Shown piece after piece: positions 22,918-54,220 of a DNA stretch of 64,000 bases; position 1 is the first letter of the stretch, and each line of letters begins with the position of its first letter. This DNA is from Oligoflexia bacterium. GTDB lineage: Bacteria; Bdellovibrionota; Bdellovibrionia; JABDDW01. The notes under the pieces are model-generated. The model had not been told where the DNA came from. It saw nothing but the letters and a program-made list of their open reading frames with translations, and did no database searches. The stretch is taken from contig JADJXN010000007.1 of the NCBI GenBank assembly GCA_016715815.1, positions 5,549 through 69,548 of the forward strand, in the 5' to 3' direction. The position numbers were made by a program, and so were the translations under genes.

Positions 22918-22994
22918 TGGTGGGCCCACCAGGATTTGAACCTGGGACTGCCCGGTTATGAGCCGGGAGCTCTAACCAGCTGAGCTATAGGCCC
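22918..22994 (-). tRNA. tRNA-Met (anticodon CAT; could be tRNA-Ile2/lysidine)
   Basis: Minus strand GGGCCUAUAGCUCAGCUGGUUAGAGCUCCCGGCUCAUAACCGGG...GGUUCAAAUCCUGGUGGGCCCACCA; cloverleaf with a CAU anticodon loop. Confidence 0.85.
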
Positions 22995-27665: not shown

Positions 27666-28049
27666 ATGTCTGACTTAAATGACCAAAAATGGATGAAAAC
27701 CGCTTTAAAGCTTGCTGAAGAGGCCCAAGCCCTTGGCGAGGTCCCAGTTGGGGCATTAGTGGTTCAGACAAAGGACCTTAAAACTGGTGAAAATTTAGTT
27801 GAGCCGGTTTTAATTTCAAAGGCTTTTAATAACCGAGAATCTGCCCAAAACCCGGTAGGCCATGCTGAGCTTTTAGCTATCAGTGAGGCTTCAAAAAAGT
27901 TGAATCGTTGGCGCTTAACTGGCTGCACACTTTATGTAACTTTAGAGCCTTGTGTGATGTGCGCAGGTGCCATTGTACTTTCCCGCATTGATCGGGTTGT
28001 GTTTGGAGCGCATGATCCAAAAGCAGGTGCTATTGAATCTATTTTATAA
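27666..28049 (+). CDS. tadA: tRNA-specific adenosine deaminase TadA, N-terminal part (apparent frameshift; C-terminus continues in frame +1 to 28155)
   Basis: HAELLAI and LEPCVMCAGAI zinc motifs in this frame; the conserved C-terminus ...VTSGVCSEEAGALLKNFF is encoded by overlapping ORF 27967..28155 in another frame. Confidence 0.7.
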   Translation: MSDLNDQKWMKTALKLAEEAQALGEVPVGALVVQTKDLKTGENLVEPVLISKAFNNRESAQNPVGHAELLAISEASKKLNRWRLTGCTLYVTLEPCVMCAGAIVLSRIDRVVFGAHDPKAGAIESIL

Positions 28050-28395
28050 AATATTTTTTGATAAAAAATTAAATCACACGCCGAAAGTTACATCAGGTGT
28101 TTGCTCTGAGGAGGCGGGGGCTTTATTAAAAAACTTTTTTTTAAAAAAAAGATAAGCGACCTTGTTGAAGCTTGTGCCGTCAATAGCTACCCATGTGTTA
28201 TACAAATGCCCACACTCTCACTCTTAAGCCCAAAAACGCAATAAAATCGAAAATAGGTAAATAATAATACGAGCCGCTATTAACAAAATTCTAAAACTAG
28301 ACTCATACTTTATTATATACCGCCGAATCTTCCTTATGAGGTGTTTTGTTCTCATAAGTACCCCCTTTCAAATGCCAGGGGGAACTCCGTTTCCA

Positions 28396-28606: not shown

Positions 28607-29023
28607 ATGAAGTTAAAGTTAACTTTTCTTATTCTTCCATTTATTTTTTTAAACTTTGCAGAGGCACGGTTTTCAAACCTAAAAATTGCTAGCCCATTTA
28701 TTGAAAATGGCGGCTCCGGATGTGATGACCATAATTGCATTTGGCTAACTGGAAAAAACTTTAAGGCTACAAATACAGTTATCTTATTTATACCTAATAC
28801 ATTTTTTAGTTTAGCAACATACAATGTGGAGTTTACTGCTAATAATCAAAACTCAGGAAAAGACTTAATAACCTTTAGAATTACAGATACTAGTGTCCAA
28901 GAGATTTTTGCATCAAGCGGGTTAAGGGTACAAATTATTGACAACACCACGGGAGAAAGATCAGCTTTTTCTCTGTTAAAAAAAGAGACTCCTCAACCAC
29001 CACCTCCTCCTTCTGTGTACTAA
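28607..29023 (+). CDS. hypothetical secreted protein with C-terminal poly-Pro tail
   Basis: Signal peptide (FIFLNFAEA); ends ...ETPQPPPPPSVY. Confidence 0.4.
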   Translation: MKLKLTFLILPFIFLNFAEARFSNLKIASPFIENGGSGCDDHNCIWLTGKNFKATNTVILFIPNTFFSLATYNVEFTANNQNSGKDLITFRITDTSVQEIFASSGLRVQIIDNTTGERSAFSLLKKETPQPPPPPSVY

Positions 29024-29036
29024 CCCACCACCTCAA

Positions 29037-30017
29037 GTGGTTATTAATACCTGCCAAGAAGTTGGTTACCCAGCAAATTATGTTGGCTCTTACATTAGCA
29101 GACGTCAATTTGATTGCGTAACACAAACCTATTCAGACTGGCAAAGAGAAGATACCTGCAAGCCAAATGATGTTTTACCTCCACCCCCTCCAACACCGCC
29201 TGTTGCAACTAGTGGTTGGCAAACAAAATATGTAGGCTTTTATGCCTCCGCCCTCTATGGGGTTGGAAGTGGAAACTATATTCAAGAAGTATCAGCTGTT
29301 TCTAATGTGGTTTTAGTAGGCTCAACAGATCCTGATTTAATTTTAAAGCTCCAAACAGCTAAAGATTTAAATATGAAGGTACTTATCTCAACACGTTGGA
29401 GTTTTTTTGATGGCAATGGTGATATTGTCTCAAACCACATACAAAATTGGCATACCTTAAGGCAAAAACTTGAGCCCTTTAGAACAAGTATTATTGGCTT
29501 TTACTTGGCAGATGAGCCTTATTGGATACATCAATTAGGTCATTCTCCAGATTTACGCCACTATGACTGGGTAAGAGACTGGTTAAACCATCTTTCAAGA
29601 ATTATTAAAATAGATTGGCCTGAAGCTATTACCGCATTTGTTGAGGCCTACCCCATTTTTACTGAGGGACATTTTTTAAACCCTGAGCTTGTGGATTGGA
29701 TTGGCATGGATTGCTACGAAGGTTTTGATAGTTGTGGTGGAAAAAGCATTCCCTGGTATTATGAGCAAATTAAAAAAACAATGCACTCTAAACAAAAGCT
29801 CATAGCAGTTCCAGGTGTGGGAAAACCAATTAACTCAGCCAAAACTGAATCACAAATTTTAAATGAGCTTAAAAAGTATGATGAAATGATAAAGGCTGAC
29901 TCACGCTTTATTATGACAATGCCCTTTTTGTGGCAAAGCTTTGGCTCATCCTCTGATGGTGGTTGGCACGGGGCCCGTGATTTAAGCTCTGTAAAAGCAG
30001 AGCTTTTAAAGCGCTAA
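29037..30017 (+). CDS. hypothetical protein, possible TIM-barrel glycoside-hydrolase-like; may be the frameshifted continuation of the previous ORF
   Basis: GTG-started ORF with no signal peptide of its own; begins with a second Pro-rich linker (PPPPPTPPVATSG). Confidence 0.4.
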   Translation: MVINTCQEVGYPANYVGSYISRRQFDCVTQTYSDWQREDTCKPNDVLPPPPPTPPVATSGWQTKYVGFYASALYGVGSGNYIQEVSAVSNVVLVGSTDPDLILKLQTAKDLNMKVLISTRWSFFDGNGDIVSNHIQNWHTLRQKLEPFRTSIIGFYLADEPYWIHQLGHSPDLRHYDWVRDWLNHLSRIIKIDWPEAITAFVEAYPIFTEGHFLNPELVDWIGMDCYEGFDSCGGKSIPWYYEQIKKTMHSKQKLIAVPGVGKPINSAKTESQILNELKKYDEMIKADSRFIMTMPFLWQSFGSSSDGGWHGARDLSSVKAELLKR

Positions 30018-30042
30018 ACCATAATTAAATTAATTAAGCTTA

Positions 30043-30768
30043 TTATGTTTTAAATAAAGCTTTGCTTGGCGAAGAAAAAAACTTGTCCCCATAAGAACAG
30101 CTAAATAAAACCAAAACCCCATCCTTGTAGCCGCCCTTTCTGAAATAAGATTTTAGAAAAATAGAAAGTCCTGAAAAAACATATAAAACATTATGTTTTA
30201 CACCTTTTTTATAAAGCGCCTCGGCATCTAAAGAAGAGTAGGTATTAATTTTATCCATCATGAGGGATAGTGTTTCAGGCGGAAAGTGCAAAATGGGAAA
30301 TTCAATTCTTCTAATTTCACCTTCAAAAGTAACATACTCATGCACCTCACCTATAAACTCGCAATCTTGGCGTTTAAAAAGTCTCCATTGATATGAAGGG
30401 GTTTTTTCTCCATAAAAATAAATTTTCCCCCTAAAGTGCTCAAGCCTTTTAACTTCTATAAGGCTTACTTCTTTTTTGGTAGCAACACCTTTGGGATGAG
30501 GGGCATCACATAAGTGAATCAAGTTTGAGAGCTGCCCGGGGCCTGATTGTTTGAATTTTTTCAAAAAACTTATTAGCTCTGGTGAGCATCCACTCCAGGC
30601 TCTCACAAAAACTTTATTAGAATATTTTTTGGCAATTTCTAAGGTTTTATCCTCACTTTGAGCATCAACAACAATAATTTCATCTGCCCATTTCAAGCTT
30701 TCAAGGCAGTTTTGAATGTTTTTTTCTTCGTTTTTTGTAATAACAAATGCTGAAATACTAGTTTGCAT
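30043..30768 (-). CDS. glycosyltransferase family 2 (LPS-core type)
   Basis: N-terminal AFVITKNEEKNIQNCLESL...DEIIVVDAQSEDKT. Confidence 0.7.
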   Translation of the reverse strand: MQTSISAFVITKNEEKNIQNCLESLKWADEIIVVDAQSEDKTLEIAKKYSNKVFVRAWSGCSPELISFLKKFKQSGPGQLSNLIHLCDAPHPKGVATKKEVSLIEVKRLEHFRGKIYFYGEKTPSYQWRLFKRQDCEFIGEVHEYVTFEGEIRRIEFPILHFPPETLSLMMDKINTYSSLDAEALYKKGVKHNVLYVFSGLSIFLKSYFRKGGYKDGVLVLFSCSYGDKFFSSPSKALFKT

Positions 30769-31190
30769 ATTCTTTTAAAATATTATTAAAAATCTCTTGT
30801 TGATCATATTCTTTTTTAACTCGCTCTTTTGCCTTCTCACCCATAGCGGGCCACTTATCCTTTTCTCTTAACGCACTTTTAATGGCCTCTTTTAGGCTTT
30901 CTAAGGATTTTGGCTCACAAAGCCAGCCCGTTTCCCCTGGGCGTACAAGCTCAGGTGTTCCACCGCTGTTTGTTCCAACCACTGGCAATGCTGCTAATTG
31001 CGCATCTAAGAGAGCTAAAGAAAAACACTCCTCATAACTTGGCAAGATATAAAGATCAAAGGCCTTAAATATTTAAAGACTCAAGCATGACACCCAAAAA
31101 AATAAGTTTGTGGCGGTTTATTTTTCTTAAATTTAAAAAATACTTCTCTGCTGCGGCGTTATTGGGCTTGAACCCCCAATAACTACTAAG
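30758..31190 (-). pseudogene. GT4-family glycosyltransferase remnant (N-terminally truncated, frameshifted)
   Basis: The C-terminal 95 aa carry the GT4 E-x7-E region (PSYEECFSLALLDAQ...VVGTNSGG); upstream pieces (FKAFDLYILPSYEE, KLIFLG) are out of frame with stops. Confidence 0.55.
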
Positions 31191-32045
31191 GTGTCAGTTT
31201 TATCATTATGAAAATATCAGCAAAGGCATGCTGAGCTCTTTTACCCTTTGATTTTTCAATTCTACTAACTGTTCCAATAATTGTTGCCGTTGTGAAAGGC
31301 CTAGTTTTTCGCTGTTTTTTTTTATCAAAAATTTGGGCTTCTTGTTTTTTATGTCGCGTCCGTAGTTAATAATTTTGAATTTTTTGAGGCTCAATTGGTA
31401 AGTAGTGCTCCTAAGGATTTCTTGGCTGGCTCGCTACTGCTACTGCTAACTCATCTACAACAGACTAAATGAGCCTGTGGTATGGGACGTTTTTGTAGTA
31501 GTTAATCCATAAATGCATTTGTAAAATTATTTTGGCCTCTTTTTGACACTGTTTTCGGAAGCATACGTAGGTAAAAAAAACAGGACACCTCTTGAGTTGA
31601 GTGAAGGTGAATCATCAAATAGACTAAAAACCCCGGATGCGCACGGTTAAACACCACCACCTCCAGAGATTTTGTACTATCAAAATCCCAATTAGGGATT
31701 TTATTTTGAACATAGCCTTTTAGGTAAGAGCCCGGAAAAACCACAAAAGACCACTTCATGGCCATGGCTTTTCTGGAAAGCTGCTAGCTCTAAAGCGTAT
31801 TGTCCAGCCAAGAAAGCTTTGCGATGGGAAAATGTCATTATCCTCATTCCCAAAAGGTAGCAGGTAGTTTTGGTAATTATAGACTTATGCTGACTTGAGA
31901 TGTAATTAATGCTTATTTAGTTACCGTGAAAGGCATTATTTAGTCAGCGGAAGCGGCACAAGACTCTACCCATTAACATCAGCTGTTAGTAAACAGCTTT
32001 ACCAGTTATAATAAACCCACCATTTACTATCCTCTCTCACTTTTA

Positions 32046-32780
32046 ATGCTGGCAGGTATAAAAGATATTTTAATTATCAGTACCCATGAGATTTACCGCA
32101 TTGAAGAGCTTTTAGGAAGTGGGGATAATTTTGGTATAAAACTTTCTTATAAAGTACAACCAAAACTTGAGGGCATTGCCCAAGCATTCATACTGGGTGA
32201 GGAGTTTATAAATAAAAGCCCAGTAAGTTTAGTCTTAGGGGATAACTTATTTTTGGCCAAGGATGCAAAACCTTTAGAAAAGGCAGCAAGATAAAAGATG
32301 GCGCATGCGTATTTGGTTACCAAGTTCAAGACCCTGAGCGCTACGGAGTAGTTGAGTTTGATACTAATAAAAGGCAATCAGTGTTGGAAAAGCCACAAAA
32401 AGCCAAAATCAAAGTGGGCTGTAACGGGCCTATATTTTATGATTCACATTAGTGTGAAATGACAAAAAATTAAAGCCCTCAAAACAGGGAAACTTGAAAC
32501 TACAGATTTAAATTTAGAATATCTAAAAGCAGAAGACTTAAGGTTGAGCTTTTAGGCCGCGGCGTTAGCTGGCTTGATACAGGCTCTGCTGAGAGTTTAT
32601 TAGAGAGTGCAAGCCGGTTTGTTCAAACTTTAGAAAAGCGCCAAGGCTTCAAATTGCTTGTTTAGAGGAGATTGCATTAAGTAAGGGTTTTTACTAACTC
32701 CTCAGCAACTTACTAAAATAGCTACAGAAAAATATCCTTCCAGTGGTATGGTTTGTATGTCCGCAATTTAGTTCCTGAGG
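32046..32780 (+). pseudogene. rmlA: glucose-1-phosphate thymidylyltransferase (rmlA) pseudogene
   Basis: RmlA-like segments (ILIISTHE...[19 protein letters not shown]..., [54 protein letters not shown]) scattered over three frames with in-frame stops. Confidence 0.75.
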
Positions 32781-32789
32781 TAAAAAAAC

Positions 32790-32882
32790 GGAGAGGTGGC
32801 TACGGAGTGGTTGAAGGCACATGATTGGAAATCATGCATACGGGCAACCGTATCGAGGGTTCGAACCCCTCTCTCTCCGCCA
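32790..32882 (+). tRNA. tRNA-Ser (anticodon GGA)
   Basis: GGAGAGGUGGCUACGGAGUGGUUGAAGGCACAUGAUUGGAAAUCAUG + long variable arm CAUACGGGCAACCGUAUC + GAGGGUUCGAACCCCUCUCUCUCCGCCA; resembles E. coli tRNA-Ser. Confidence 0.85.
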
Positions 32883-34149
32883 ACACCAGGGCTAAAAAAT
32901 TAAAAACATTAGATTGCAAAATTCGAAATGTGTTAAATAATATATGTTAAACGCGTCAAAAACTGAAGACTATCTTTACGGGGGTATGGCGATGAAACTT
33001 TTAATTTGTATAATGACATTTTCAATAAACGCGTTTGCGGCGACACCTTTTCTTGATCAATATTTTCTTGTGGGACCACATAATGACACCTATTTTTTTG
33101 CTCCCTTAGCCAAAACCCATTGCAAAGAATATCAAGTCTTTAAGATTTCTTGGCTAACATTGAGTTAAGCTTTAAAAATCAATGAGCGATGATGTTTTAC
33201 TTTTTGGAAGTTACCCAGTTTATACTGAATACGCCTCTTGCCCTGAGACTGATAATCAGGTTGTTATTAATTTTCAGGATATATATCTGCAAAAACAGAA
33301 AAGGAAATCTGTTGCTAGCAGAATATGTAAAAAGGGTGAATAAAAAAACGTTTTTTAATAGATATTTAGCCTTTTTAAAACCAGAACACACAGTCAATGT
33401 ATTCAATTTCGAAATAGATGGTGTTACAACCCTAAGATATCATAAAGATGCAATATCTTTTTCTGATGCCACACAGGAAGTTGATGAATTTAAAAAAAAT
33501 TAATATTAACCATGGGTAAAGCTGATGCTGTGAAAGATTTTCTTAGGAAAATCAATAAAGCCTAGTGATTATGAAAACACAATAAGATTAATAGAAATGC
33601 TAAGTATATTACATTTTTCTTCGTCATCAATGGTTCATGTTGAAATACTTTGCGTGAAGGAGATGGTTATTGGGAGCATTATCCTTGTAATCCAAACTCC
33701 TTTTTGCGAATTAGTTTCAATGCAGCAATAACTTGGTTCTAAATCTGGATTTTCTCGGCCAGAACCACTTTTGTAAAAAACTAACACCCAAATATGTCAC
33801 TGACTTTTTGGTCAGCTCTGAACAAAAATAAAACAGCCTAGCAAGTGGAACATGCTAGTTTAACCTTTCTTTTAATGCACCAGGCTAAACCTGCCAAATA
33901 AATCAAGACATGCATGCGTGATATCAATGCTATACTGCTCCCTTGTAAGTCATTGACACCACAAAACCTATAACTGGTAAAGATTATGAACCCTTGAAGC
34001 TGCCAAAATATTTGGTAGAAAGGATGTCTCAAAATGGAGACTCAAATGGTAAAAGAGCCTAAAATAGCGGTGTTGATTACTAAGTTATGTAGTTCACAGG
34101 AATTTAGAGGATTACTGGCGAGCTGAAGAGAAAGTTGAATTGATTGTGA

Positions 34150-35240
34150 TTGGTCTGACAAGGAAAAATTCCAGTGACAACCCTTTGCAAGATCAACAAC
34201 GTAACGCCAAGTCAGTATTACGAGTGGCGGGAGAAATTTTTAGCTACAGGTAAGCGGGGCCTCATGGCAAATGGAGGTAAGACCCAACGAGAAGCTGAGC
34301 TTGAGAAGAAAATAAGTATTTTTAGAGCGCTGTATTGGAGAATTAACTCTTGAAAAGAGTTGTTAAAAAAATCAGCGAAGATTCCTAAAGTTAGGAAAAT
34401 TGTTAATAAATATAAGAACGACTTTAAGGTGCGAACCCTGAGCAAGGTTCTTGGGGTGAGTCGCCAAAGGGTTTATTTTATTAAAAAATGCCCAGAGTTA
34501 AGAGCACCAGAAGGGAAAGAAAAATGAAAGAAGATGAGGCTATGATAATAAAAAATATTGAAAATTGTTTCGAGAACTACCTGTCTATGGCTATAGACGT
34601 GTAACAGCTGTTTTGCGCCACAGGTATGGATTAAGGTAAGCTGGAAAAGGTTTACAAGATAATGCGTGAGAAAACTTTGTATGCCACCAAGTCACAGTCA
34701 CTTAAAAAGATGTTTAGAGGAGTACCGTTTGCAACAAAACTCAAGTTCAAGATCAAATGAGTTATGGGGTATAGACATGACATACATTTGGTGTGGTTAA
34801 AGATGTAGTGCTACTTCCATGGAGTTATTGATCATCATGACAAGACGTTGCTTAGTTACTATTTTCAAAGATCTTGCTCTGCCTTGGGTGGTGTAATGGC
34901 CTAGGGAAATGCAGCATCCAGAGAAGTGAGTCCTTGGAGTTAGATCTGATAACGGTTGTCACTATGGAGCGAAGGTCTTTAAAGACGAGATTAGACGTCT
35001 TAGAATTAATCATACAAGAACTATGGTTAATACCCCCAAAGGCAATGCTGAATTGAGAGATTTTTAGATCACTCAAAGAGAATGGTGTGGCAACAGAAAT
35101 TTTTAATTTTGAACAAGCTAAAGAGGCTGTTGATAAATGGTATTAAAGTACAACCAAGAGCGCCCACACCAAACCCTTGATTACTTAACCCCAAAACAAT
35201 TTTACGAAAGGAGCACTATAGGAAATATTCAACAAAAAGT
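34150..35240 (+). mobile_element. degenerate IS3-family insertion sequence copy (transposase orfA/orfB remnants)
   Basis: OrfA-like (QYYEWREKFLATGKRG...REAELEKKISIF) and rve-like (WGIDMTYIW, ...QPRAPTPNP) translations broken by many stops and frameshifts. Confidence 0.5.
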
Positions 35241-35460
35241 GTCTTGATTTATAGGGAGCACTACACACTTTTCCTTGTCCAAAGAGCCTCACACTTAACG
35301 GAGGTTCTTATGAATCTAATCACTCGAATTGTTTTAGGGCTGGTGAAGCTGGCGTTAGCCATCGGCTTCGCCGGAGGGCTAATTGATCTCACGCATACCA
35401 TGAAGGACGAGGCGCTGAAGGCTCATAGGCAAGGGATCGTGATGACCTTCTCCCCTTAAA

Positions 35461-36643
35461 TTAGTCCAGTCTGAGTCGGATTAAACTGTGGTAAAAGCTA
35501 CAGAAGGAGGAGGTAGGTATGTCCAGAGGGAAGAGATATAGTCCAGAGGAAGTAATAATAAAACTACGCGAAGCTGAAGCTTTGCAGGTTCAAGGATTAA
35601 ACCAAGGTGAAATTTGTAGGCAACTTGGTGTTTCAGCAGACACTTATATCCGTTGGGAAAAGATATGGTGGGATGCGTGTTGATCAAGCAAAAAAGCTTA
35701 AAGATCTGGAAAGGAGAATCAGCAGCTTAAAAATTAGTAGCTGATTTAAGCCTTGATAATTCCATGCTCAAAAGTTAACAAGGGAAACTTTTAAGCCCGA
35801 CAAGGAAGCGTCAAAAGCTGTGGTGATGTTAATAGAAAAGTTTGAAACATCTGAACGTCGGGCATGTAAAGTTGTTAGTCTTTTCAGAGCGACAAAAGAT
35901 ACGAAGCAAAAGTAGATACAATAAATAAAGTGATCACGCCAAAAATTGAGTACGCAAGTCAATATGGGCGCTATGGCTACAGGAAGTAACAGCAATGGTG
36001 AGAGCTGATGGGTTTTAAAGTGAATCACAAAAGAGTTTACCGTATATGGCGTAGGAGGAGGATTAAAAGTACCAAAGAAGCAACCAAAAGAAGTAGACTT
36101 TGGCTCAACGATGGATCTTGTATCAGAAAAAGGCCGGAGTATAAAAATCATGTGGTCATATGATTTTGTGCATGATTACACACATGATGGAAGGCCAATA
36201 AAGATGTTAACCATCATTGATGAATTTAGTAGAAAACTTAGCAATCAAAGTGGGGAGAAAATTAAGATCTATAGATGTGTTAGAAGCACTGGCTGATTTA
36301 TTTTTAGAAAAAGGAATTCCAAAATACATCAGATCAGATAATGGGCCAGAATTTATTGCCAGAAAACTTATCCACTGGTTTGGCAAAATTAAAATAAGTC
36401 CATTATTTATCACACCAGGGAGTCCATGGGAGAATGGTTACATTGAATCATTTAATGGGAGACTCAGGGATGAGTTGTTAAATGGAGAAATATTTTTTAC
36501 ATTAAAAGAGGCTCAAGTTTTGATAGAGAGATGGCGAAGAAATTACAACACCATAAGGCCACATAGTAGCTTAGGTTACAAACCACCAGCTCCTGAGGCA
36601 ATTATGGTTGCAATTTAAACTATCCGACTGTACATGGACTAAA
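35461..36643 (+). mobile_element. degenerate IS3-family insertion sequence with imperfect terminal inverted repeats
   Basis: Left end TTAGTCCAGTCTGAGTCGGAT is mirrored at the right end as ATCCGACTGTACATGGACTAA; OrfA MSRGKRYSPEEVIIKLREAEALQVQGLNQGEICRQLGVSADTYIRWEK; orfB full of stops. Confidence 0.65.
36217..36618 (+). pseudogene. IS3-family transposase, integrase-core C-terminal fragment
   Basis: rve domain tail SDNGPEF...[23 protein letters not shown]...[11 protein letters not shown]. Confidence 0.7.
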
Positions 36644-36656
36644 TAGTGGGGCTGGG

Positions 36657-36860
36657 TCACTCTCCCCAAGGGTCGCTATTATATGTTGTTATTTGATCTA
36701 GGCCTACAATAGGAGTTGGCCAAGAGCTCTGGCTTAAAGCCGCCTCATAGCCGAGTTTATTAATTTTATTTTGAGCGGATACAATGGTATCTGCATCAAG
36801 AGCTGCAGCAAAAGAATTTAAAGAAAATAATGCGATTAAAAAAAGCAGTGTTAGTTTCAT
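36657..36860 (-). CDS. small secreted peptide (67 aa, Sec signal)
   Basis: MKLTLLFLIALFSLNSFAAALDA...; immediately downstream of the NTase/PqqD operon. Confidence 0.35.
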   Translation of the reverse strand: MKLTLLFLIALFSLNSFAAALDADTIVSAQNKINKLGYEAALSQSSWPTPIVGLDQITTYNSDPWGE

Positions 36861-36975
36861 GGGTCCCCCTCCCGTTAAACTATTTGCTAAAAATTCTAGT
36901 ATGGGGGGTTAAAGACACCTAGTTAAGAAAAGTGAAATCTTCTGTTAAGCGCATCGTTTTAATTTTTAAAAATGA

Positions 36976-38103
36976 TTAGGGTTTACCTTTTAATTTCCTT
37001 AGGCCATAAATTGCTCGCCAAATATAAAGAGCTGGTAAATAGATGTTGGATTTGATGTTATATTTTTTCTTCATGTATTCTTTGGGGGGGATAAGTCGTT
37101 CCTGTAAGTATTTGAGTTTATTTGGTAAGCTTAGACTTTCTAAATCGCAAACAAAATCGCTTAGAAGGCTGCGCTTGGGGCTTAAAAAAACTATAGAATC
37201 AGCCTCATCACTATTGGGCTTGGCACTTATAATTTCTTGTAAGAAAGTCTCGGGCCATATTGTATTAAACCATTCTTTCGTTTTTTCCATGCCTTTAGCA
37301 CATAGAAACCAAACTTTTTTTTCTTTTGCTAGGTTTTGAAAATCCGTCAGCCAGATTGAGTTTTTTTTGTCAGTTAAAAGATGTGTATCATAAAGCCACA
37401 GCGGGTTTTCCTCATCGTGGTGGTGCGCAACACCATGAATAAAAGCATACAAGAGAGCGTGATGGTCGTTCATCACCTTTATGACTCCATTATGTTCTGG
37501 CAAATCTTGAGCTGCACTATAAGCCTCATCAAAAGAAATAAGATTTGCAAAATAATTAATATTACTGAGCTTCCAGTGCAGATCAAAAACCAAATTATAA
37601 CCATGGTGTTCAAGTTTTGAAAAGGCGCACTGATGTCCTGCCTGTTGGCCATAGGTCATATTTTCTTGTCTATAACCTAGAGATTTGAAAACCTGGAAAG
37701 CTAATTGACGATTTTTTTCAGAAATAAAAAGATCAATATCTCCGTGAGCGCGCAGACCTGGTCTTGGGTAAATGGTATAGGAGAGCGCAGCCCCTTTTAA
37801 AACAAGAAAAGGAATATTATTTTTTTTAAACTCAAGGCCTAATTTAATTAGGGCGTGTTTTCTGATGTCTATTAAAAACGTTTCTCGTGCTACCTCAAGC
37901 TTAAGGGCTTGCTTAACAGACGACGGGCAGGTTTGTGTAAGGACATTTTGTTCTAGCCAGTAATTTAATAGTGGCAGGAGATGATTTTTTTTTAACTCGT
38001 CTAAAAGAAATTTTTGAAACCCGGCATCGCTTTCATCCCAAGTTACAGTAGTGCTGTTAGCAGCTTGCTGTATTACTTTCTGAAATTTTTTTTGGTAAAG
38101 CAT
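36976..38103 (-). CDS. Pol-beta-type nucleotidyltransferase family protein (lasso-cluster-associated type)
   Basis: hG[GS]...D.D signature in AHGDIDLFIS; 4-nt gap to the upstream PqqD gene. Confidence 0.6.
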   Translation of the reverse strand: MLYQKKFQKVIQQAANSTTVTWDESDAGFQKFLLDELKKNHLLPLLNYWLEQNVLTQTCPSSVKQALKLEVARETFLIDIRKHALIKLGLEFKKNNIPFLVLKGAALSYTIYPRPGLRAHGDIDLFISEKNRQLAFQVFKSLGYRQENMTYGQQAGHQCAFSKLEHHGYNLVFDLHWKLSNINYFANLISFDEAYSAAQDLPEHNGVIKVMNDHHALLYAFIHGVAHHHDEENPLWLYDTHLLTDKKNSIWLTDFQNLAKEKKVWFLCAKGMEKTKEWFNTIWPETFLQEIISAKPNSDEADSIVFLSPKRSLLSDFVCDLESLSLPNKLKYLQERLIPPKEYMKKKYNIKSNIYLPALYIWRAIYGLRKLKGKP

Positions 38104-38107
38104 AGAT

Positions 38108-38395
38108 TTACTGAAAGCTAATCAAATTATTTTTTTTTAAAACTTTTAGTAAGGATAAAACATCGGTCTCTGCTTTTTGTTTGCCAATCTGGTAATCTTG
38201 CACAAGTGTAGTAATAATTTTTTTTACAGGAGTTCCTTTTTTTATCAGTTCCCAAATTTGGGTCCCAACCTGGTTAAGACCGAAGTACGTTCCTGATTCT
38301 AAATGAAGTATGACTTCTTCTTTTTGAACGGGGCGCGAGACAATGTCTTTAGAAATTATTATTTTAGATTCAAGAAGGTTCTTTGTGCTTTGCAT
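38108..38395 (-). CDS. PqqD-family RiPP recognition element (lasso B1-like)
   Basis: 95 aa (ILHLESGTYFGLNQVGTQIWELIKKGTPVKKIITTLVQDY) with the typical PqqD winged-helix pattern. Confidence 0.75.
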   Translation of the reverse strand: MQSTKNLLESKIIISKDIVSRPVQKEEVILHLESGTYFGLNQVGTQIWELIKKGTPVKKIITTLVQDYQIGKQKAETDVLSLLKVLKKNNLISFQ

Positions 38396-39641
38396 AGACC
38401 ACCTGCGGGTTAGAGAATAATTTATTAAACAACAAATTTTTATTTTTTGTCAAGTAATGTTCAACAGTATATGCAGCATAAAGCATTAAATAGATATCCA
38501 GATAGGTTCTGTGTAATGTGTGGGCCCAAAAAACCCCTGTTATAATAATAAATGATGCAAAGTGAAAATAAATAAGAAGCTGTGTTTTTATTTTTTCTCT
38601 ATTTAAATACATTCCAATTAAACCCAAAAGCAAAAGTGGTGTGTAAGAAAAAAAATAAACAATTTGTACAACTGGAGTTTTTTGCGGGTTAAAAATCCAA
38701 CTAAAACCAGCCATATTTTTTTTTATAAAACCCACAAAAGTTTGCCATGGGTGAGTTTTAATGTATTTGATAGCCATTTGAGTGTACCACTGGTTCTGTA
38801 GACGCTCGTTATGTTCTATCAGATAAATCTCAACTATATCTAGATCGATAAAGGCTTTTGAACGGCTTGTATCCATGCTTTCTCTTGGGTAGTGAGAAAA
38901 TGTGTGAGGATTATTCCCTCCCCAGAGAGCCTTACCAAACTGGGAGGTTATTAGTGGGGCGCCAATAAGAAGATGGGTGCGTATAAGCCACGGTAAAATA
39001 GTGAAAAAACAAAAAATAATAATTAAAAGGGGTTTTCCAAATTTTATTTTAATATGAGCGGTGTTATTTATAAAAACCCATATTGCGGCAAGTGGTACAA
39101 ATGGGAATAGAGTGCTTCGGACAAGTAAGGTTAGGCCTAAACAGATCCCTGCTACAGCACTTAGATAAAGCTTTTTTGAATTGTTAGCCTTGATTAGAAA
39201 GACGGTGCTAAGTGCCGTCATAAATGTAAAAAGACTAGCTTCGTGTAATGAAGGATCATGAAGAACAAAGTAAGGGTAAAGAGCTGTTAATAGAGCTGCA
39301 CTTATTCCTATTTTGTAAGAGAAAAATTTTTTTCCGATGTAGAAGATGCAAAGTGTGGTGGCGGCGCCTAAGAGAGATTGGAGAACAACAATAACAATAA
39401 AACTCATGGAGCTTAATGCCGCAAAACTAAGAAGAAGTGGGTAGCCGGGTGGAATAAAGGCGTAGTAGGCTGGGTCGCCGAGGTAAAGCCCGTATCCTTG
39501 TGTAAGATTTTTTGCAATCTGAAAGTAGGACTCATATCCACGGTTCCAAAATAAATCCTCTCCGACAATAAAGGCGGAGCCTGCGCGCAGCATAAAGGCG
39601 AGTACAAAAATTAAATGTAACCGATATTTTTTTATATACAT
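38370..39641 (-). CDS. GT-C fold membrane glycosyltransferase (ArnT/PMT family)
   Basis: 423 aa polytopic protein with an ArnT/PMT-like N-terminal loop (...YAFIPPGYPLLLSFA...) and ~10 TM helices; 3' end overlaps the PqqD gene. Confidence 0.6.
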   Translation of the reverse strand: MYIKKYRLHLIFVLAFMLRAGSAFIVGEDLFWNRGYESYFQIAKNLTQGYGLYLGDPAYYAFIPPGYPLLLSFAALSSMSFIVIVVLQSLLGAATTLCIFYIGKKFFSYKIGISAALLTALYPYFVLHDPSLHEASLFTFMTALSTVFLIKANNSKKLYLSAVAGICLGLTLLVRSTLFPFVPLAAIWVFINNTAHIKIKFGKPLLIIIFCFFTILPWLIRTHLLIGAPLITSQFGKALWGGNNPHTFSHYPRESMDTSRSKAFIDLDIVEIYLIEHNERLQNQWYTQMAIKYIKTHPWQTFVGFIKKNMAGFSWIFNPQKTPVVQIVYFFSYTPLLLLGLIGMYLNREKIKTQLLIYFHFASFIIITGVFWAHTLHRTYLDIYLMLYAAYTVEHYLTKNKNLLFNKLFSNPQVVYAKHKEPS

Positions 39642-39703
39642 TAATTGTGGTTATCCTATGTTTAGTCTTGCAATGAGCGGGCAAAATAACAATAATTTTC
39701 TAT

Positions 39704-40855
39704 ATGCATTCTGAATCTGCTTTAAAGATCCCATTAGTTTCCCAATTGCTGAAAGACCCTTCTTTTAAAATAATAAAACGTGCGGTTGATTCAAAATGGA
39801 TTTATGAAAAGCTGGTTCCATTGGGCCATTGCGGCTTTAACCCTGCCACCAATGCGGCCTATGTAGGTTTTAATTCGTCAGTGTCGCAGTGGTTACAAAA
39901 TCCCAAGCAAAGTATTCGCAGTTTTAACTTTAACGATACATTTTTACATGAGCTTTTTTTTATAATCCATGATTACCTTCATGCCTGGAGCTACAATGCC
40001 ATTAACGAGCTTTACCCAGGTTTAAAATTTGGTTACGGAAAAATTACTGAAAAAAACTTTGAAGACTATGTTTTTTGCCATATTTTAACTGAGGCGGTAG
40101 CCACGGTGGGCCTAGATTATTGGTATTTATCCACCATTGAATTAAACCAGGTAATACCAGTAGGCGCTAATATCAAAACACTGACAGCGGCTTATCACGT
40201 AAAAAATAATTCGGAATATAGACGCTTTGACCCTAAGTTTAATGCACAAAAAAGGGGTTTTTTAAAAACACTTAACGATGCTTATTGCGATGGTATTTTT
40301 TATGCTTTACCAATGAAAGCCATCCAACTCAGCCCTCAGATATATAGATGGTATTGGCATGAGCTGACCTATGGGAGGCTTCAGAGAAAATACACTCGTC
40401 AATGGTTAAGCTATTTGTCTGCGGGCGAGGTTGTGTGTGAGCAGGCTAAGCTAGATATTAAAATCGATAATTCAAAAAAATGGATGCAAGAACTTGTTGA
40501 AGACTTATCCCTATTGCTTTGGCAAAAGGTTAAGGAGAATAAAAATATTTGGTTTAAGCCGCAATACGATGTTAAGCACGACGCTTGGGGCGGGAGTGGA
40601 AAATTGCAAATGGACAGTAGGTTTACATCGTTGATCCATCTAAAGACGCCAAAAACATTTAATTATCTTGACTACTATGTATCTCAATATGCCATTAGAC
40701 ATACCTTTTCTGAGAATAGTAAGGCCATTGCAAGCCAGCTTCCAGAAATTGCCAAAAGTAAAAATTTGCAAAAGCTAAAGAAAATATTTAAAAATCAAAA
40801 AAAGGTAGAGTCCGCGTTTGACGTCTATCCACAATCGCTTTTTATGCTCCCCTAA
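39704..40855 (+). CDS. hypothetical protein with HExxxxxH motif
   Basis: 383 aa; FLHELFFIIHDYLHAW; no known domain recognised. Confidence 0.35.
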   Translation: MHSESALKIPLVSQLLKDPSFKIIKRAVDSKWIYEKLVPLGHCGFNPATNAAYVGFNSSVSQWLQNPKQSIRSFNFNDTFLHELFFIIHDYLHAWSYNAINELYPGLKFGYGKITEKNFEDYVFCHILTEAVATVGLDYWYLSTIELNQVIPVGANIKTLTAAYHVKNNSEYRRFDPKFNAQKRGFLKTLNDAYCDGIFYALPMKAIQLSPQIYRWYWHELTYGRLQRKYTRQWLSYLSAGEVVCEQAKLDIKIDNSKKWMQELVEDLSLLLWQKVKENKNIWFKPQYDVKHDAWGGSGKLQMDSRFTSLIHLKTPKTFNYLDYYVSQYAIRHTFSENSKAIASQLPEIAKSKNLQKLKKIFKNQKKVESAFDVYPQSLFMLP

Positions 40856-49652: not shown

Positions 49653-50951
49653 ATGGATTTGTCTCTTGTAATACCCTGTTATAACGAGGCACTGTATTTA
49701 AAAAATAATTTTAATGCTCTGGTTAGTGTATTAAAGCAGACTAGCTATGAGTTTGAAATTATTTTTGTTGATGATTGCAGTACAGATAACACAAAAGAGA
49801 TCATTGGCGAAATTAGTAACTCAAGCCATAATTGTAAAGCCATATTTAATTTAAAAAACTTAGGCAGAGGCACTTCTTTTAAGCAAGGCTTTTCAGTGGC
49901 TGAGGGGCGAATTATTGGCTTTATTGATATCGATTTAGAAATAGCCCCCCATTATATTCTTGATCTCATTTCCAAAATTGATAAAGAAGGTTTTGATTTA
50001 TCACTTGGCCGGCGCTTTTTGTTTTATGGCTTTCAAAAACCAATACGTAATATTTTTTCCCTTCTTTGTAGATATTTCTGCTCTCTAGTACTTGGAACGC
50101 AAAATTACGACACCCAAGTTGGATGTAAGTTTTTTAATGGCCATACGGCGCGACCGAGTATTTTAGAAAGTAAAAGTAGTAGTTGGTTTTGGGATACAGA
50201 AGTTATATTTATGGCGCAATTAAATAAACTAAAGATTGTTGACATTCCAGTTCGCTATAGACCGCTTAAAAATAAAAAATCAACAGTGAGAATTATTCCT
50301 GACACGATTAAATTTATACAAGGGGTGCGTGAACTAAGGCGCAAAATGGGATTGAGTTTATCTAATCGCTCCCCCATATATTGGAGCAATAAAGGGTATA
50401 ACTTTATTATGCAACTATTGACTGGGAAGAGTTTTCAACAATCTTTTTCAAAAGTGGCAGAGCTTATTCCAGAAAGTGCTTCGGTTATTGATGTTTGTTG
50501 TGGAACTGGAGAGTTTTATTATAAACATTTAAAACAAAAAAATTGTGATTATAGAGGGCTTGACTATAATTATCGTTTTGTAAAAGGCATTAATAAAAGA
50601 GGGGTAAAATCAAACTTGTCTGATGTTCGTTATGAGAAAATCCCGGCTTGTGACTATGTTGTTATGGTTTCAAGTTTTTATCATTTTAAAAAACAAAAAA
50701 ATGAAATATTAAAAAACATGCGAGCCTCGGCTCAAAAGGCGGTAATTATTAGTGAGCCTGTGCACAATTTTTCGCGGCACCGTATTGGTTTTGTGTCAAA
50801 GGTGGCAGTTATGCTAAGTAAGCCTGGGGAAGGGGAGTATATGGAACGCTTTAATTTAAAAGAGTTTCAAGAATTTGCACAAGCGGAAGGAGCAACAGAG
50901 TTTTATTTTAACTCTAAAGATAAAAATGCCATTGCGGTTTTTAAAACTTGA
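49653..50951 (+). CDS. bifunctional GT2 glycosyltransferase / class I SAM methyltransferase
   Basis: N-terminus LVIPCYNEALYL...FVDDCSTDNT (GT2); C-terminus VIDVCCGTGEF (SAM motif I). Confidence 0.7.
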   Translation: MDLSLVIPCYNEALYLKNNFNALVSVLKQTSYEFEIIFVDDCSTDNTKEIIGEISNSSHNCKAIFNLKNLGRGTSFKQGFSVAEGRIIGFIDIDLEIAPHYILDLISKIDKEGFDLSLGRRFLFYGFQKPIRNIFSLLCRYFCSLVLGTQNYDTQVGCKFFNGHTARPSILESKSSSWFWDTEVIFMAQLNKLKIVDIPVRYRPLKNKKSTVRIIPDTIKFIQGVRELRRKMGLSLSNRSPIYWSNKGYNFIMQLLTGKSFQQSFSKVAELIPESASVIDVCCGTGEFYYKHLKQKNCDYRGLDYNYRFVKGINKRGVKSNLSDVRYEKIPACDYVVMVSSFYHFKKQKNEILKNMRASAQKAVIISEPVHNFSRHRIGFVSKVAVMLSKPGEGEYMERFNLKEFQEFAQAEGATEFYFNSKDKNAIAVFKT

Positions 50952-50976
50952 GCCTATTTTAGAGGTTACATAAAAA

Positions 50977-51759
50977 ATGTCAAAAATCAGTGTTGTTATT
51001 CCAGTTTATAATCAGTCGCACTTTACAAAGAGATGCTTGCCATCTTTAATTGATGGAGCGGTTGAGCCGCAAGAGCTAATTATTATCGATAACAACTCAA
51101 CTGACGACACACCAAAATATTTAAAAGAGTTTCAAGAATATGCAGAAAATAAAAATTGGAAGATGCAAATTATTACAAACCCCCAAAATGTGGGTGTGGG
51201 GGCGGCGTTTAATCAAGGTATTAAGGCGGCAAGTGCGGAGTATGTAGCCCTTGGCAATAACGACACTTGGATTATGCCCGGCTGGGACAACGCTTTAATT
51301 AACGCTATTGAAACTTTGAAAGCCGACATGGTAGGCCCTCATTTTGACGAGAGCTTATTTAATGAAAAGGAAATTTTAGAAAAGGCAAAAAAATTTGTTA
51401 AAAAAAATCACGGACGTGCAACGCGCGAGTGGGCTGTTATTTTAATGATGTTTAAAAAAGAAGTTTTTGAAAAAATTGGTCTTTTTGATGAGCGCTTTTT
51501 TATCACCTACGAAGATCGTGACCTAAGAGAGAGAATGGACCGTGCCGGTATGAAGTATTATAAAACTGGTAATTGTTATATTTGGCATCATTCAAAAGGT
51601 ACCCGCGATGCCGGTGGTGTTGTTTCTAATTATGAGGCTGATAGTTTAAAAAAATTTATTGAAAAGTGGGGCTTTGACCCAAGGCCACAGGAAAACACAC
51701 TTTTATACCGCTACAAACGCAAATGGGTACGCTTTAAAAATCGGCTAGGTTATCTTTAA
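50977..51759 (+). CDS. glycosyltransferase family 2
   Basis: ISVVIPVYNQSHFTKRCL...IIIDNNSTDDT... Confidence 0.8.
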   Translation: MSKISVVIPVYNQSHFTKRCLPSLIDGAVEPQELIIIDNNSTDDTPKYLKEFQEYAENKNWKMQIITNPQNVGVGAAFNQGIKAASAEYVALGNNDTWIMPGWDNALINAIETLKADMVGPHFDESLFNEKEILEKAKKFVKKNHGRATREWAVILMMFKKEVFEKIGLFDERFFITYEDRDLRERMDRAGMKYYKTGNCYIWHHSKGTRDAGGVVSNYEADSLKKFIEKWGFDPRPQENTLLYRYKRKWVRFKNRLGYL

Positions 51760-52837
51760 TAATTTCAGCAGCTAACTTTATTCCTTCTGGGTTCCAGTGG
51801 GTGTCATCCAGCCAATAAATATACTTATTATTTTTCAATAATTTTTCTGCAACAACTTGAAACTGAGGAAGTAAATTAATGCTATGAACTTTATTTTTGC
51901 TAAGCTCATTTGAAAGCTGATTTAAATAGGGCTCACTATTTGTTGTGCTTTGGTTTTTGTTCAAATTTGCATAAACAGTGTATTTTTCAGGAACAAGTAC
52001 AACGTGTAGGGTGATTTGTTTTTTTGCTAATAATTTTTTAAGTTCTGTAAAATACTGTGTATCACTAGTTATCTGATTAAAGCTTGGGTGATTGTACTTC
52101 TCTATTTGTGAGGGTGGGTAAATTATTTCCGCATTATTTATTAATTTTTCAATTTTTACATTTGATTCAAAGCGATTTGGAAAAATATTTTTAGTTACAA
52201 AACTCTTTTCAAAGCGAGATGAAATAATCTCAAGGGGGTTAAAATTTTTATAGTAATCAAACAAAATTTTTAATTTGCTAAAAAAACTATTATCTAAAGT
52301 CTTGTTAAAATCCTTTATCTCCTCAGGACTTCTGTGGTGTCTTTCAAGGTGAAAAAACAAAAGAGCCTTGGGAGTTGTTGTTAAATTTTTTAAAAGCCAA
52401 GCTAAATATTCAAGCTCAAGTTTTCCGGCCCCATTATAAACATGAGCATTTAATGCTTTTGATAGCTGCTCTGCTGGAATCTGCTCTTGTGAAACGCCCT
52501 CGCCAAAAGTAAAGGAATCGCCATAAATAAGAATATCATTTTTTTGATTAAATACATCTAAAGTATTTCTGTAGCCCCATGGATCTGTAATAAATATTTC
52601 TGAGCGGTATTGACAAAAATCCATGCGGTTTGAAAGTTTTGCCAAGTCTCCACAAATAGCATTTTTTTGCATATTAAAATTGGCTTCAAAAGGTGCCGCG
52701 GGAAGGCGTCTTAAACTGGCGCACTCAAGGGCTCTTGTGCAAAACACTGTGGGAGATAATGAGCGCGGCAAAGTATAAGCTGCTAAAAAAAGAGCGTATA
52801 CTATTAAAACTATTTTTATAAAGCCTAAATTCCTCAT
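51734..52837 (-). CDS. AlgJ/AlgX-like DHHW-motif SGNH protein (MBOAT partner)
   Basis: N-terminal anchor; LDDTHWNPEG (DxHW signature) near the C-terminus; immediately downstream of an MBOAT gene. Confidence 0.6.
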   Translation of the reverse strand: MRNLGFIKIVLIVYALFLAAYTLPRSLSPTVFCTRALECASLRRLPAAPFEANFNMQKNAICGDLAKLSNRMDFCQYRSEIFITDPWGYRNTLDVFNQKNDILIYGDSFTFGEGVSQEQIPAEQLSKALNAHVYNGAGKLELEYLAWLLKNLTTTPKALLFFHLERHHRSPEEIKDFNKTLDNSFFSKLKILFDYYKNFNPLEIISSRFEKSFVTKNIFPNRFESNVKIEKLINNAEIIYPPSQIEKYNHPSFNQITSDTQYFTELKKLLAKKQITLHVVLVPEKYTVYANLNKNQSTTNSEPYLNQLSNELSKNKVHSINLLPQFQVVAEKLLKNNKYIYWLDDTHWNPEGIKLAAEIIKDNLADF

Positions 52838-52846
52838 ATCCCTTTC

Positions 52847-54217
52847 TTAAAACTGAAAATATAAAAATGGTGAATTATTATTTGCCAAAATTCTTACTAG
52901 TGAGATTAAAAATAAAGCTGCCATGGCCCAAGATTTAATTTTGCCATATTTATGTTTAAGCTCAAAGGTATTGGGCATTGTATGGGCTATAATAATGCTT
53001 AATGCTACAACACAGGCCAGAGTTTGCCACTGAGCTGGCATAGCACCTGGCATTTGGCCAAACATTTTATTTAAAATTAAAAATGAAGTAGCCATATCAG
53101 GGGATCTAAAAAAGACCCAGGCAATAACAACCAATAAAAAGGTGATCATCTTTGCAACAAAGGGTGAAAGCTTGGCATTACCAAACTCTTTCCATAAGTG
53201 GTTTATAATCAAATAAATTCCATGCAAAGCGCCCCAAATAATAAATGTCCAGTTGGCTCCATGCCAAAGACCGCCTAAAAGCATAGTGATAAATAAATTT
53301 ATTTTAGTTCTCAAAGGTGAGATTCTGTTTCCCCCAAGGGGAATATATAAATAATCTCTTAGCCAAGTAGAAAGGCTAATGTGCCAGCGGCGCCAAAAAT
53401 CAGAAATATCTATGGCCTTATAGGGTGAGTTGAAATTTTGTGGAATTCTAATTCCAAACATGTAACCAAGGCCTACGGCCATGTCACTGTAGCCAGAAAA
53501 GTCAAAATACAGCTGATACGTATAGCCCAGCATTATAAGCCAAGTGCCAGAGCTGCTAAGAGTATTTATATTTAAAAATGCTGGGTCAATAATAGCGGCA
53601 ATGCTATCTGCGATGAGTACTTTTTTAAAAAGCCCAATAAGAAAAAAGCTAAAACCCTCATTAATTTTGGAAAATTTGTCAGACTTATCAATTTTCTCTA
53701 AATCTTCCTCAATTTGCCTAAAGCGCACAATGGGCCCTGCGACAAGTTGAGAAAATAAAGAAACATAACAAGAAAATTCAAAAAAGTTTTTTGTAGGCTT
53801 AATAGTTCCGCGGTAGGCATCAATAATGTAGCTCATGGTGTGAAAGGTGTAAAAAGATATACCAACTGGTAAAATTATTTTTAAAGCTGGCAAATCAACA
53901 GCCCAGTGCATATTATCTGCAAAGAAATTATAATATTTAAAAAAACCTAAAAGCGCTAAATCAACACTAATGGCTAAAACCATAGCCCTTTTTTTAAGTA
54001 TTTTATTTTTAGCTTTTAAAATATAAAGGCCTGCAAAATAACTTACCAAAGTTGAAAAAAGCATTAATAGGCAAAACCGCGCATCCCACCAACCATAAAA
54101 AACATAGCCAGTAAGAGTGAGCCAAAAGTAGCGCTCAGTTTTGGTTTTAAGGTTCCAAAAAACAAAATAAGTTATGGGTAAAAAGGCAAATAAAAAGACA
54201 ACACTGTTAAAGAGCAT
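52847..54217 (-). CDS. MBOAT-family membrane-bound O-acyltransferase (AlgI-like)
   Basis: FSGYSDMAVGLGYMFGIRIPQNFNSPY...FWRRWHISLSTWLRDY; paralogous to 40856..42337. Confidence 0.85.
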   Translation of the reverse strand: MLFNSVVFLFAFLPITYFVFWNLKTKTERYFWLTLTGYVFYGWWDARFCLLMLFSTLVSYFAGLYILKAKNKILKKRAMVLAISVDLALLGFFKYYNFFADNMHWAVDLPALKIILPVGISFYTFHTMSYIIDAYRGTIKPTKNFFEFSCYVSLFSQLVAGPIVRFRQIEEDLEKIDKSDKFSKINEGFSFFLIGLFKKVLIADSIAAIIDPAFLNINTLSSSGTWLIMLGYTYQLYFDFSGYSDMAVGLGYMFGIRIPQNFNSPYKAIDISDFWRRWHISLSTWLRDYLYIPLGGNRISPLRTKINLFITMLLGGLWHGANWTFIIWGALHGIYLIINHLWKEFGNAKLSPFVAKMITFLLVVIAWVFFRSPDMATSFLILNKMFGQMPGAMPAQWQTLACVVALSIIIAHTMPNTFELKHKYGKIKSWAMAALFLISLVRILANNNSPFLYFQF

Positions 54218-54220
54218 TAT

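Follow-up and report, generated by a model that had tools for sequence, protein, structure and literature searches.

Indel-rich "pseudogenes" that stem from consensus errors in long-read assemblies (Nanopore or PacBio continuous long reads) are a known annotation artefact, and mutation-accumulation studies of natural mutation have found that substitutions outnumber indels. Such error-made pseudogenes, together with tRNA-linked genomic islands, insertion sequence (IS) elements of the IS3 family and lasso-peptide gene clusters, are the described systems closest to the locus that we analysed here, a 64,000-nt stretch (hereafter, the window) from contig JADJXN010000007.1 (positions 5,549 to 69,548) of assembly GCA_016715815.1. 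The record is a metagenome-assembled genome (MAG) of an Oligoflexia bacterium. Around a tRNA-Ser(GGA) gene, it shows glycosyltransferase (GT2 and GT4) and rmlA genes with broken reading frames on one side, and on the other side two IS3-family elements with broken transposase genes (left-hand ISA and right-hand ISB) followed by a lasso-peptide and glycan-modification locus. At face value this reads as genome decay next to a "fossilised" island, as the original prediction had proposed; what it appears to document is largely a local quality problem in a public MAG. Taken as a whole, the region is probably explained by an error-damaged consensus over an ancestral block that reaches to the tRNA gene, followed by a structural breakpoint with lineage-specific DNA.

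The decisive evidence comes from short-read (Logan) contigs of the same locus, namely L009 (SRR34646275) and both L010 and L011 (SRR34646263). L009 was found with the conceptual OrfB protein of ISB, stitched from three frames (the match was a 268-aa protein of 97% identity), and L010 and L011 were found by exact look-up of window open reading frames (ORFs); look-ups of this kind with the GT2, HNH protein, NTP_transf_5 and P0121 of the window gave no match. L009 aligns to window positions 35126-36619, which comprise the 3' end of ISA, a GC-rich spacer and nearly all of ISB. L011 aligns to 35667-37401 and contains an intact 266-aa orfB, the IS end, a 67-aa ORF and the 3' end of the NTP_transf_5 gene. 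The two contigs are identical to each other across 963 nt. The window is 100% identical to the independent contigs at 35161-35592 and 36231-37401, and L010 is 100.000% identical to 37793-38953; the MAG and short-read populations are therefore essentially the same strain.

Over the whole alignment, 16 indel events (13 deletions and 3 insertions of 1-3 nt each) and 4 substitutions set the window apart from L009, and the indels fall in runs of A, G or T or in repeats of AG, TG, ATT or GA. Within ISB, 15 small indels and 3 substitutions fall in 35593-36230, with a dense patch of ~575 nt, and the last 430 nt are clean. In the part that it covers, L011 disagrees with the window at 13 of these indels and 2 of these substitutions, as L009 does, and there is no difference across 36231-37401. 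All 15 of the ISB indels are absent from the short-read contigs. Given that the two assemblies agree mutually, match the MAG outside the patch and differ from it inside almost only by short-repeat indels, the lesions of ISB are almost certainly consensus errors, not mutations.

In the organism, ISB is thus intact. The orfB gene (266-268 aa, with HTH_21, rve and rve_3 domains) is uninterrupted in both contigs, and orfA is complete in L009 and runs off the contig end in L011. In L009, orfA (395-676, 93 aa) lies in frame 2 and orfB (700-1506) in frame 1, which correspond to the 0 and -1 frames, and the intact orfB scores 222 bits against the IS3 model NF033516 (cut-off 160). The corrected length of the element is ~1.23 kb. 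Its ends, TGACCTTCTCCCCTTAAATTAGTCCAG... paired with ...CATGGACTAAATAGTGGGGCTGGGTCA, have the form TGACC...GGTCA, that is 5'-TG...CA-3' as in IS3 elements. ISB probably belongs to the IS407-like group, going by its terminal and OrfA/OrfB motifs. The element presumably transposes by the usual IS3 route, in which a programmed -1 frameshift would yield OrfAB, followed by copy-out/paste-in.

The original prediction had described two IS3-family elements whose transposases are riddled with stops, and had the locus "locked in" as these elements decayed. There are indeed two different elements, both with broken frames in the record; the decay does not hold for ISB, which is intact at this very locus in independent data, and with it falls the idea of locking in. 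The inverted repeats that had been recognised at ISB are likewise real (arms at 35452-35481 and 36622-36651), and the true ends lie ~17 nt outside the assigned ones, at 35443 and 36659.

No target-site duplication of 3-5 bp was found at ISB, the flanks being GTGA on the left and CTCT on the right, as confirmed by L009 and L011. A misjoin at ISB, suspected from the missing duplication, was ruled out because both junctions are confirmed by the same two contigs. The 67-aa ORF overlaps the right end of the element and has the same product on L011, which shows that the IS truly borders the lasso locus. We also observed an imperfect direct repeat, CAAGGG(A)TCG, at 35430-35439 and 36667-36675; its copies flank ISB at distances of 3 nt from the left end and 7 nt from the right end. 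Both its length and its offset are too large for a target duplication of the IS3 type, and it may be due to chance or represent a footprint.

The position of the damaged genes relative to the junction was revealed by gene order. The AsnB-like protein encoded in the window matches MBK9294683.1 at 100% identity, and a DnaG search gave no close relative, with top matches 60-61% identical and the named matches being Oligoflexia or Bdellovibrionales. We compared three relatives, L002 (DnaG 60% identical), L006 (~50%) and L007 (48%), using tblastn of their genes for gene order, Pfam and NCBIfam for domains, and ARAGORN and Rfam for tRNA genes. A scan of the genome collection with DnaG returned a single distant relative (L001, 37% identity), which has the conserved operon and no tRNA-Ser nearby. 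In L002, L006 and L007, rpoD-dnaG-yqeY-rpsU is followed by a divergent tadA and then by GT2 and GT4, with all genes intact and no IS. The rmlA gene is in the block of L002 and L006, the latter additionally with rmlC and rmlD, and in L006 and L007 the block is closed by tRNA-Ser(GGA), oriented as it is in the window.

All block genes of the relatives were found in the same order in the window, where the block adjoins the rpsU-yqeY-dnaG-rpoD operon. The 27.6-32.9 kb region is an ancestral, vertically inherited block of tadA, a secreted protein gene, GT2, GT4, rmlA and tRNA-Ser(GGA). Because this order is shared with the relatives, GT2, GT4, rmlA and the tRNA gene belong to the ancestral side of the junction and are not island debris. 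GT4 and rmlA had been regarded as flanks of an island; their intact, IS-free counterparts in the relatives come near to the very finding that the original prediction named as speaking against itself. The secreted protein, which is Pro-rich, is absent at this position in L002, L006 and L007 and has no Pfam match. Its two ORFs are probably one gene split by a 1-nt shift at ~29015-29025, and both frames run through a PPPPP / TGTG stretch near 29020. The left block also holds an RNase P RNA (class A, 215 bits) at 20743-21074 and a tRNA-Met at 22918-22994, placed as in L006 and L007.

Compared with the intact orthologs, the frames of four protein genes of the block are disrupted, as counted by frameshift-aware protein-to-DNA alignment, which gives lower bounds. 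GT4 has at least 10 frameshifts within ~770 nt and one stop, and its last 306 nt (30764-31069) are lesion-free. It had been described as a truncated pseudogene; the broken frames are there, and the truncation is not, as residues 6-389 of the 392-aa ortholog align over 31831-30767 (GT4 of L002 and L007). The rmlA gene, correctly predicted to be spread over three frames, is also full length, with at least seven frameshifts (~12 by eye) and at least one in-frame stop. Read by eye, several of these shifts can each be explained by the contraction of one T run or A run, and undoing it restores conserved peptides. Frame-corrected RmlA is 69% identical to that of L002 and 66% to that of L006 over 272 residues, vs 70% between L002 and L006, and thus shows no excess amino-acid divergence. 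Frame-corrected GT4 is likewise about as close to its orthologs as these are among themselves. TadA shows 64% identity to that of L002 over its full length, with no residue lost and a single +1 frameshift in a T run at ~28044, at which tblastn with the relatives' proteins splits into two frames. GT2 also has a single frameshift (at 30105), after which the final ~23 codons are out of frame.

In general, the lesions follow position along the contig. They are sparse from ~28 kb and dense at 31.07-35.14 kb and 35.66-36.23 kb, the patches cross gene borders, and GT2 is clean but for two sites. Outside 28-36.3 kb, there is no sign of a split in any of the ~45 ORFs, and both flanks are tiled without unexplained gaps and with full-length family matches. 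The indel-to-substitution count (16 vs 4), the clustering and the full length of the affected genes do not fit a neutral mutation spectrum. By analogy with ISB, the lesions of GT4, rmlA, ISA and tadA probably have the same artefactual origin. The errors would be mostly 1-3-nt deletions in homopolymers and short tandem repeats within a poorly supported stretch of the contig, and their patchiness calls for a local cause, for instance coverage that is low or mixed, or windows left without polishing.

For ISA, the last 115 nt are covered by L009, and there the window has 1 deletion and 1 substitution. The element has candidate terminal inverted repeats, ATAAATCAAGACA... and ...TGTCTTGATTTAT, with 13/13 terminal matches and an alignment score of 42 (shuffle 95th percentile 30, shuffle maximum 44). 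One of its frames reaches 79 bits against the NCBIfam IS3 model, below the cut-off of 160, and no intact copy of ISA turned up as a reference. The GC-rich fragment between the two elements is identical in L009 and holds a small membrane-like open frame (35244-35459). Scans of JGI metagenomes gave no match for this fragment or for the ISA 3' end, and a plasmid search with its small ORF gave none either.

The tRNA-Ser(GGA) gene, which was correctly predicted in position and strand, is recognised by both ARAGORN and Rfam. Its Rfam score is 40.8 bits vs 52-54 bits for the orthologs, its D loop is longer by 3 nt, and its discriminator base is G, compared with U in L006 and L007. In the alignment with the orthologs, compensatory changes keep the anticodon and variable stems paired, and the tRNA looks functional.

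Synteny with the relatives stops at the tRNA-Ser 3' end, and the called genes beyond it share no tblastn match with the window, in either direction. L006 has a Gp49/HTH_37 pair and a creatininase there. In L007, a short (254-aa) Phage_integrase gene (4220-5099) ends on the 3' side of the orthologous tRNA-Ser(GGA), 26 nt away from it, and is followed by metal-related genes (YHS, DUF4010, PepSY and rhodanese). A second copy of the tRNA end was not found in the 5 kb of L007 examined, and in the relatives only the tRNA itself matched. In the window, the tRNA gene is followed by ~1 kb of unassigned sequence, the two IS3-family elements split by the 190-bp fragment, and the lasso/glycan locus. The junction at the tRNA-Ser 3' end is thus a real structural breakpoint, and in this Bdellovibrionota lineage gene content has changed repeatedly at the tRNA-Ser(GGA) that closes the tadA-glycosyltransferase block. 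In the unassigned sequence, Pfam gave no match for the ORFs 32944-33168 and 33189-33503, nor for any of the six frames of 32883-34060. These two had been noted as small orphan ORFs; they do lack a family match, and with the frames read by eye they look like pieces of one small putative secreted-protein gene split at A-runs, not separate genes.

Table 1 Features of the window around the tRNA-Ser(GGA) gene and of the adjoining locus.
Feature	Position in window	Strand	Basis and remarks
tadA (tRNA adenosine deaminase)	27666..28155	+	Pfam deaminase domains; opens conserved block
Pro-rich secreted protein, two ORFs: 28607-29023 (138 aa, signal peptide) and 29037-30017 (326 aa)	28607..30017	+	ORF list
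GT2 glycosyltransferase	30036..30768	-	Ortholog of the tadA-adjacent GT2 in relatives; Pfam covers profile positions 1-57 of 168
GT4 glycosyltransferase	30761..31853	-	Read in three frames; Pfam Glycos_transf_1 on C-terminal part
rmlA (glucose-1-phosphate thymidylyltransferase)	31927..32785	+	Pfam NTP_transferase in two frames; spread over three
tRNA-Ser(GGA)	32790..32882	+	ARAGORN; Rfam 40.8 bits
AT-rich stretch (33% GC) with ORFs 32944-33168, 33182-33343 and 33189-33503	32883..33897	+	ORF list
ISA, left-hand IS3-family element	33898..35252	+	Pfam HTH_23, HTH_28, HTH_Tnp_1, rve_3 and HTH_21 scattered over frames
GC-rich fragment between the IS elements	35253..35442 (190 bp)		50.5% GC in a 37% GC genome
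ISB, right-hand IS3-family element	35443..36659 (1217 nt)	+	Pfam HTH_Tnp_1, HTH_21, rve, rve_3; NCBIfam IS3
67-aa ORF	36657..36860	-	Stop codon TGA coincides with bases 1-3 of the IS end; exact product on L011
Lineage-specific lasso-peptide and glycan-modification locus	36976..55453		Pfam, NCBIfam
NTP_transf_5	36976-38103		
PqqD/B1	38108-38395		
HPrK-like	44662-45612		
Candidate precursor, 58 aa, Gly-rich	45619-45795		40% identical to the same-position ORF in L008
AsnB-like cyclase	45792-47726		
B2 protease, transglutaminase-like	47727-48146		NF033537 78 bits vs cut-off 33

The locus to the right of the junction encodes an NTP_transf_5 protein, PqqD, PMT_2, two MBOAT proteins, an HPrK-like kinase, the 58-aa candidate precursor, an AsnB-like cyclase and the B2 protease, and further an ABC exporter, GT2s, an AlgX-like protein and a sugar C-methyltransferase. 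The lasso-peptide gene set, at 36976-49616, looks complete and is interleaved with the PMT_2 and MBOAT membrane enzymes. A canonical counterpart of the cluster is found in an unrelated genome, L008, which would favour a foreign ancestry.

The DNA composition changes clearly across the junction in one respect, the plus-strand skew of G and C at third codon positions (GC3 skew). Up to 30.8 kb, 20 of 26 genes have a negative skew, and from 36.9 kb on, all 21 genes have a positive one (Fisher p = 2.4e-8). This reversal is independent of gene orientation and runs to the window end at 64 kb, and frame-corrected GT4 and rmlA resemble the genes on the left in their skew. In tetranucleotide usage, the correlation between 37-55.5 kb and the core amounts to 0.86-0.92, and core segments among themselves reach 0.89-0.94. 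The GC content at third codon positions (GC3) is 0.317 in the locus vs 0.287 (p = 0.012), and the codon-usage fit is slightly lower (p = 0.054). Searches with 25 nt and 16 nt of the tRNA-Ser 3' end, allowing up to 3 mismatches, returned a single occurrence in the 64-kb window, so that the distal direct repeat proposed as an island border was not found within it; a border beyond the window is possible. No integrase domain was detected in the six frames of 32883-34060 or in the Pfam-scanned ORFs of 36.7-62.9 kb, and the L007 integrase had no tblastn match in the window.

The lesions could also be read as genuine decay, with the GT2-GT4-rmlA glycan module and both IS elements being real pseudogenes that were inactivated after the new glycan/lasso locus arrived. 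The lesions are, after all, present in the deposited sequence, and every affected gene but tadA is dispensable. GT2, which had been called intact (30043-30768), lost 25 codons in a clean in-frame 75-nt deletion at ~30589, by which the EQRNFAL...FFLDADE (DxD) core is gone in the alignment with L002, L006 and L007. Several points weigh against consensus error as the source of all lesions. This deletion is unlike homopolymer-type errors, and may be real or an assembly deletion, and in rmlA one homopolymer indel does not account for the TAG near 32450, which requires a substitution. The spectrum of homopolymer lengths is uninformative, with slightly fewer long runs in the dense zone than in the rest, a difference that is not significant. 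Measured by the trend of DnaG, YqeY and TadA, the similarity of GT2, GT4 and RmlA to L002 falls short by 6-13 points, which relaxed selection would also explain; the deficit is present in the otherwise intact-looking GT2 too, so this calibration of identities does not separate decay from error. For GT4, rmlA, tadA, GT2 and ISA, moreover, the case is built on analogy and the lesion spectrum, since the independent contigs begin only at 35126 within ISA, to the right of 28.0-35.1 kb. The sequencing technology adds to these points, as the MAG is only tentatively a long-read one: its accession block may belong to the Danish activated-sludge Nanopore MAGs. The candidate study used CANU, Racon, two medaka rounds and Racon with Illumina reads, with the --include-unpolished option (PMC8012365). 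That pipeline could leave windows unpolished, which would apply here if the MAG belongs to the study. Decay is nevertheless improbable, because two independent assemblies, with flanks 100% identical to the window, have an intact ISB at this locus, and indels exceed substitutions 4 to 1, the reverse of natural mutation. Each "pseudogene" is also full length and without large deletions, and the lesion patches cut across gene boundaries and include a frameshift in the essential tadA. Part of the damage, such as the deletion of the GT2 DxD core, may still be real; that it records an old glycan module being replaced by the neighbouring locus is a remote possibility.

For the breakpoint itself, our tentative reading is an IS-mediated inversion or translocation of DNA of native composition, or an insertion from a close relative. 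Native tetranucleotides, reversed strand polarity and an ISB without target duplication fit such a rearrangement or near-relative insertion better than a distant donor, and the hybrid flanks of one IS together with the skew reversal suggest a rearrangement. The original prediction instead had the 37-55 kb locus arrive by horizontal transfer, and this could have been an integrase-mediated island at the tRNA-Ser(GGA) 3' end that carried the lasso/glycan locus, its integrase and attL later erased by the IS elements and its distal attachment (att) site located beyond the window. Such an island would account for synteny ending exactly at the tRNA 3' end, for a different cargo in each relative and for the integrase gene at the same tRNA in L007. 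It would also suit the AsnB-like gene, whose best non-self matches are ~40% identical and named from other phyla, and the slightly higher GC3 and different skew polarity. These signs of discontinuity stand, and the others expected of an island do not: integrase domain (32.9-62.9 kb, six-frame and ORF Pfam scans), repeat of the tRNA 3' end (16-25 nt, up to 3 mismatches, in the window), and conjugation or phage genes are missing, and the tetranucleotide signature is native. The composition is accordingly divided, with GC3 and codon usage marginally different and the skew reversed, but this reversal continues to 64 kb and nothing marks borders at "37-55 kb". A tRNA-targeted island is unproven, and we consider it rather unlikely. 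It is less likely still that the assembly joined two places of the genome, or two strains, through ISA or through the poor-quality sequence on its left side. The record is a MAG, in which the zone rich in errors does coincide with the IS elements and with the reversal of the skew, and the start of independent coverage inside ISA leaves room for such a join. However, the order up to the tRNA-Ser is validated by the synteny of the relatives and that from the ISA 3' end to 37.4 kb by L009 and L011, so only ~2.2 kb (32.9-35.1 kb) could hide it, and the composition is the same on both sides. The skew reversal might otherwise mark a chromosomal replication origin beside the tRNA-Ser and the IS elements, given a minus-to-plus sign change with ~30 kb on either side and rpoD, dnaG and rpsU co-oriented with a fork leaving the junction leftwards. 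This is highly improbable: the window has no perfect DnaA box (a weak excess of one-mismatch boxes, with 6 matches in 30.6-36.4 kb, includes none with the TCCACA core) and no dnaA, dnaN or other origin-linked genes, and in L006 the skew sign is unchanged beyond its tRNA-Ser. There is similarly a very slim chance that this uncultured Oligoflexia lineage has an origin far from dnaA, beside rpsU-dnaG-rpoD, at a tRNA gene that doubles as an insertion hotspot.

Users of this record should treat ~28-36.3 kb as unreliable, and expect intact GT4, rmlA and tadA genes and two probably active IS3-family elements in the organism; the deletion in GT2 may be real. The biological content is modest, with nothing unusual for bacterial genomes, and error-made pseudogenes have been known before.

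Compared with known systems, the lasso-peptide genes resemble clusters with an HPr-kinase-like kinase and a nucleotidyltransferase, which we take to be the paeninodin type. The window shares with them B1, B2, the AsnB-like cyclase, a precursor ORF, HPrK-like and NTP_transf_5 genes and an ABC exporter, and differs in that these genes are dispersed among PMT_2 and MBOAT genes, whereas L008 has the canonical order. As in the IS3 family and its presumed IS407-like group, ISB has orfA followed by orfB in the -1 frame, an IS3 model score and TG...CA ends, but it lacks the 3-4-bp target-site duplication. Like tRNA-linked genomic islands, the lineage-specific DNA starts at the 3' end of a conserved tRNA gene, at which L007 has an integrase; unlike such islands, it shows neither an integrase nor an att direct repeat nor a foreign tetranucleotide signature within the window, and GT4 and rmlA lie on the conserved side. 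The damaged genes resemble pseudogenes made by long-read errors. The window errors differ from these in being confined to ~8 kb of an otherwise clean 64 kb, in patches of ~0.5-4 kb. They agree in that the lesions are short indels in homopolymers and tandem repeats, that the genes are full length and well conserved, and that the lesions of ISB vanish in short-read data from the same strain.

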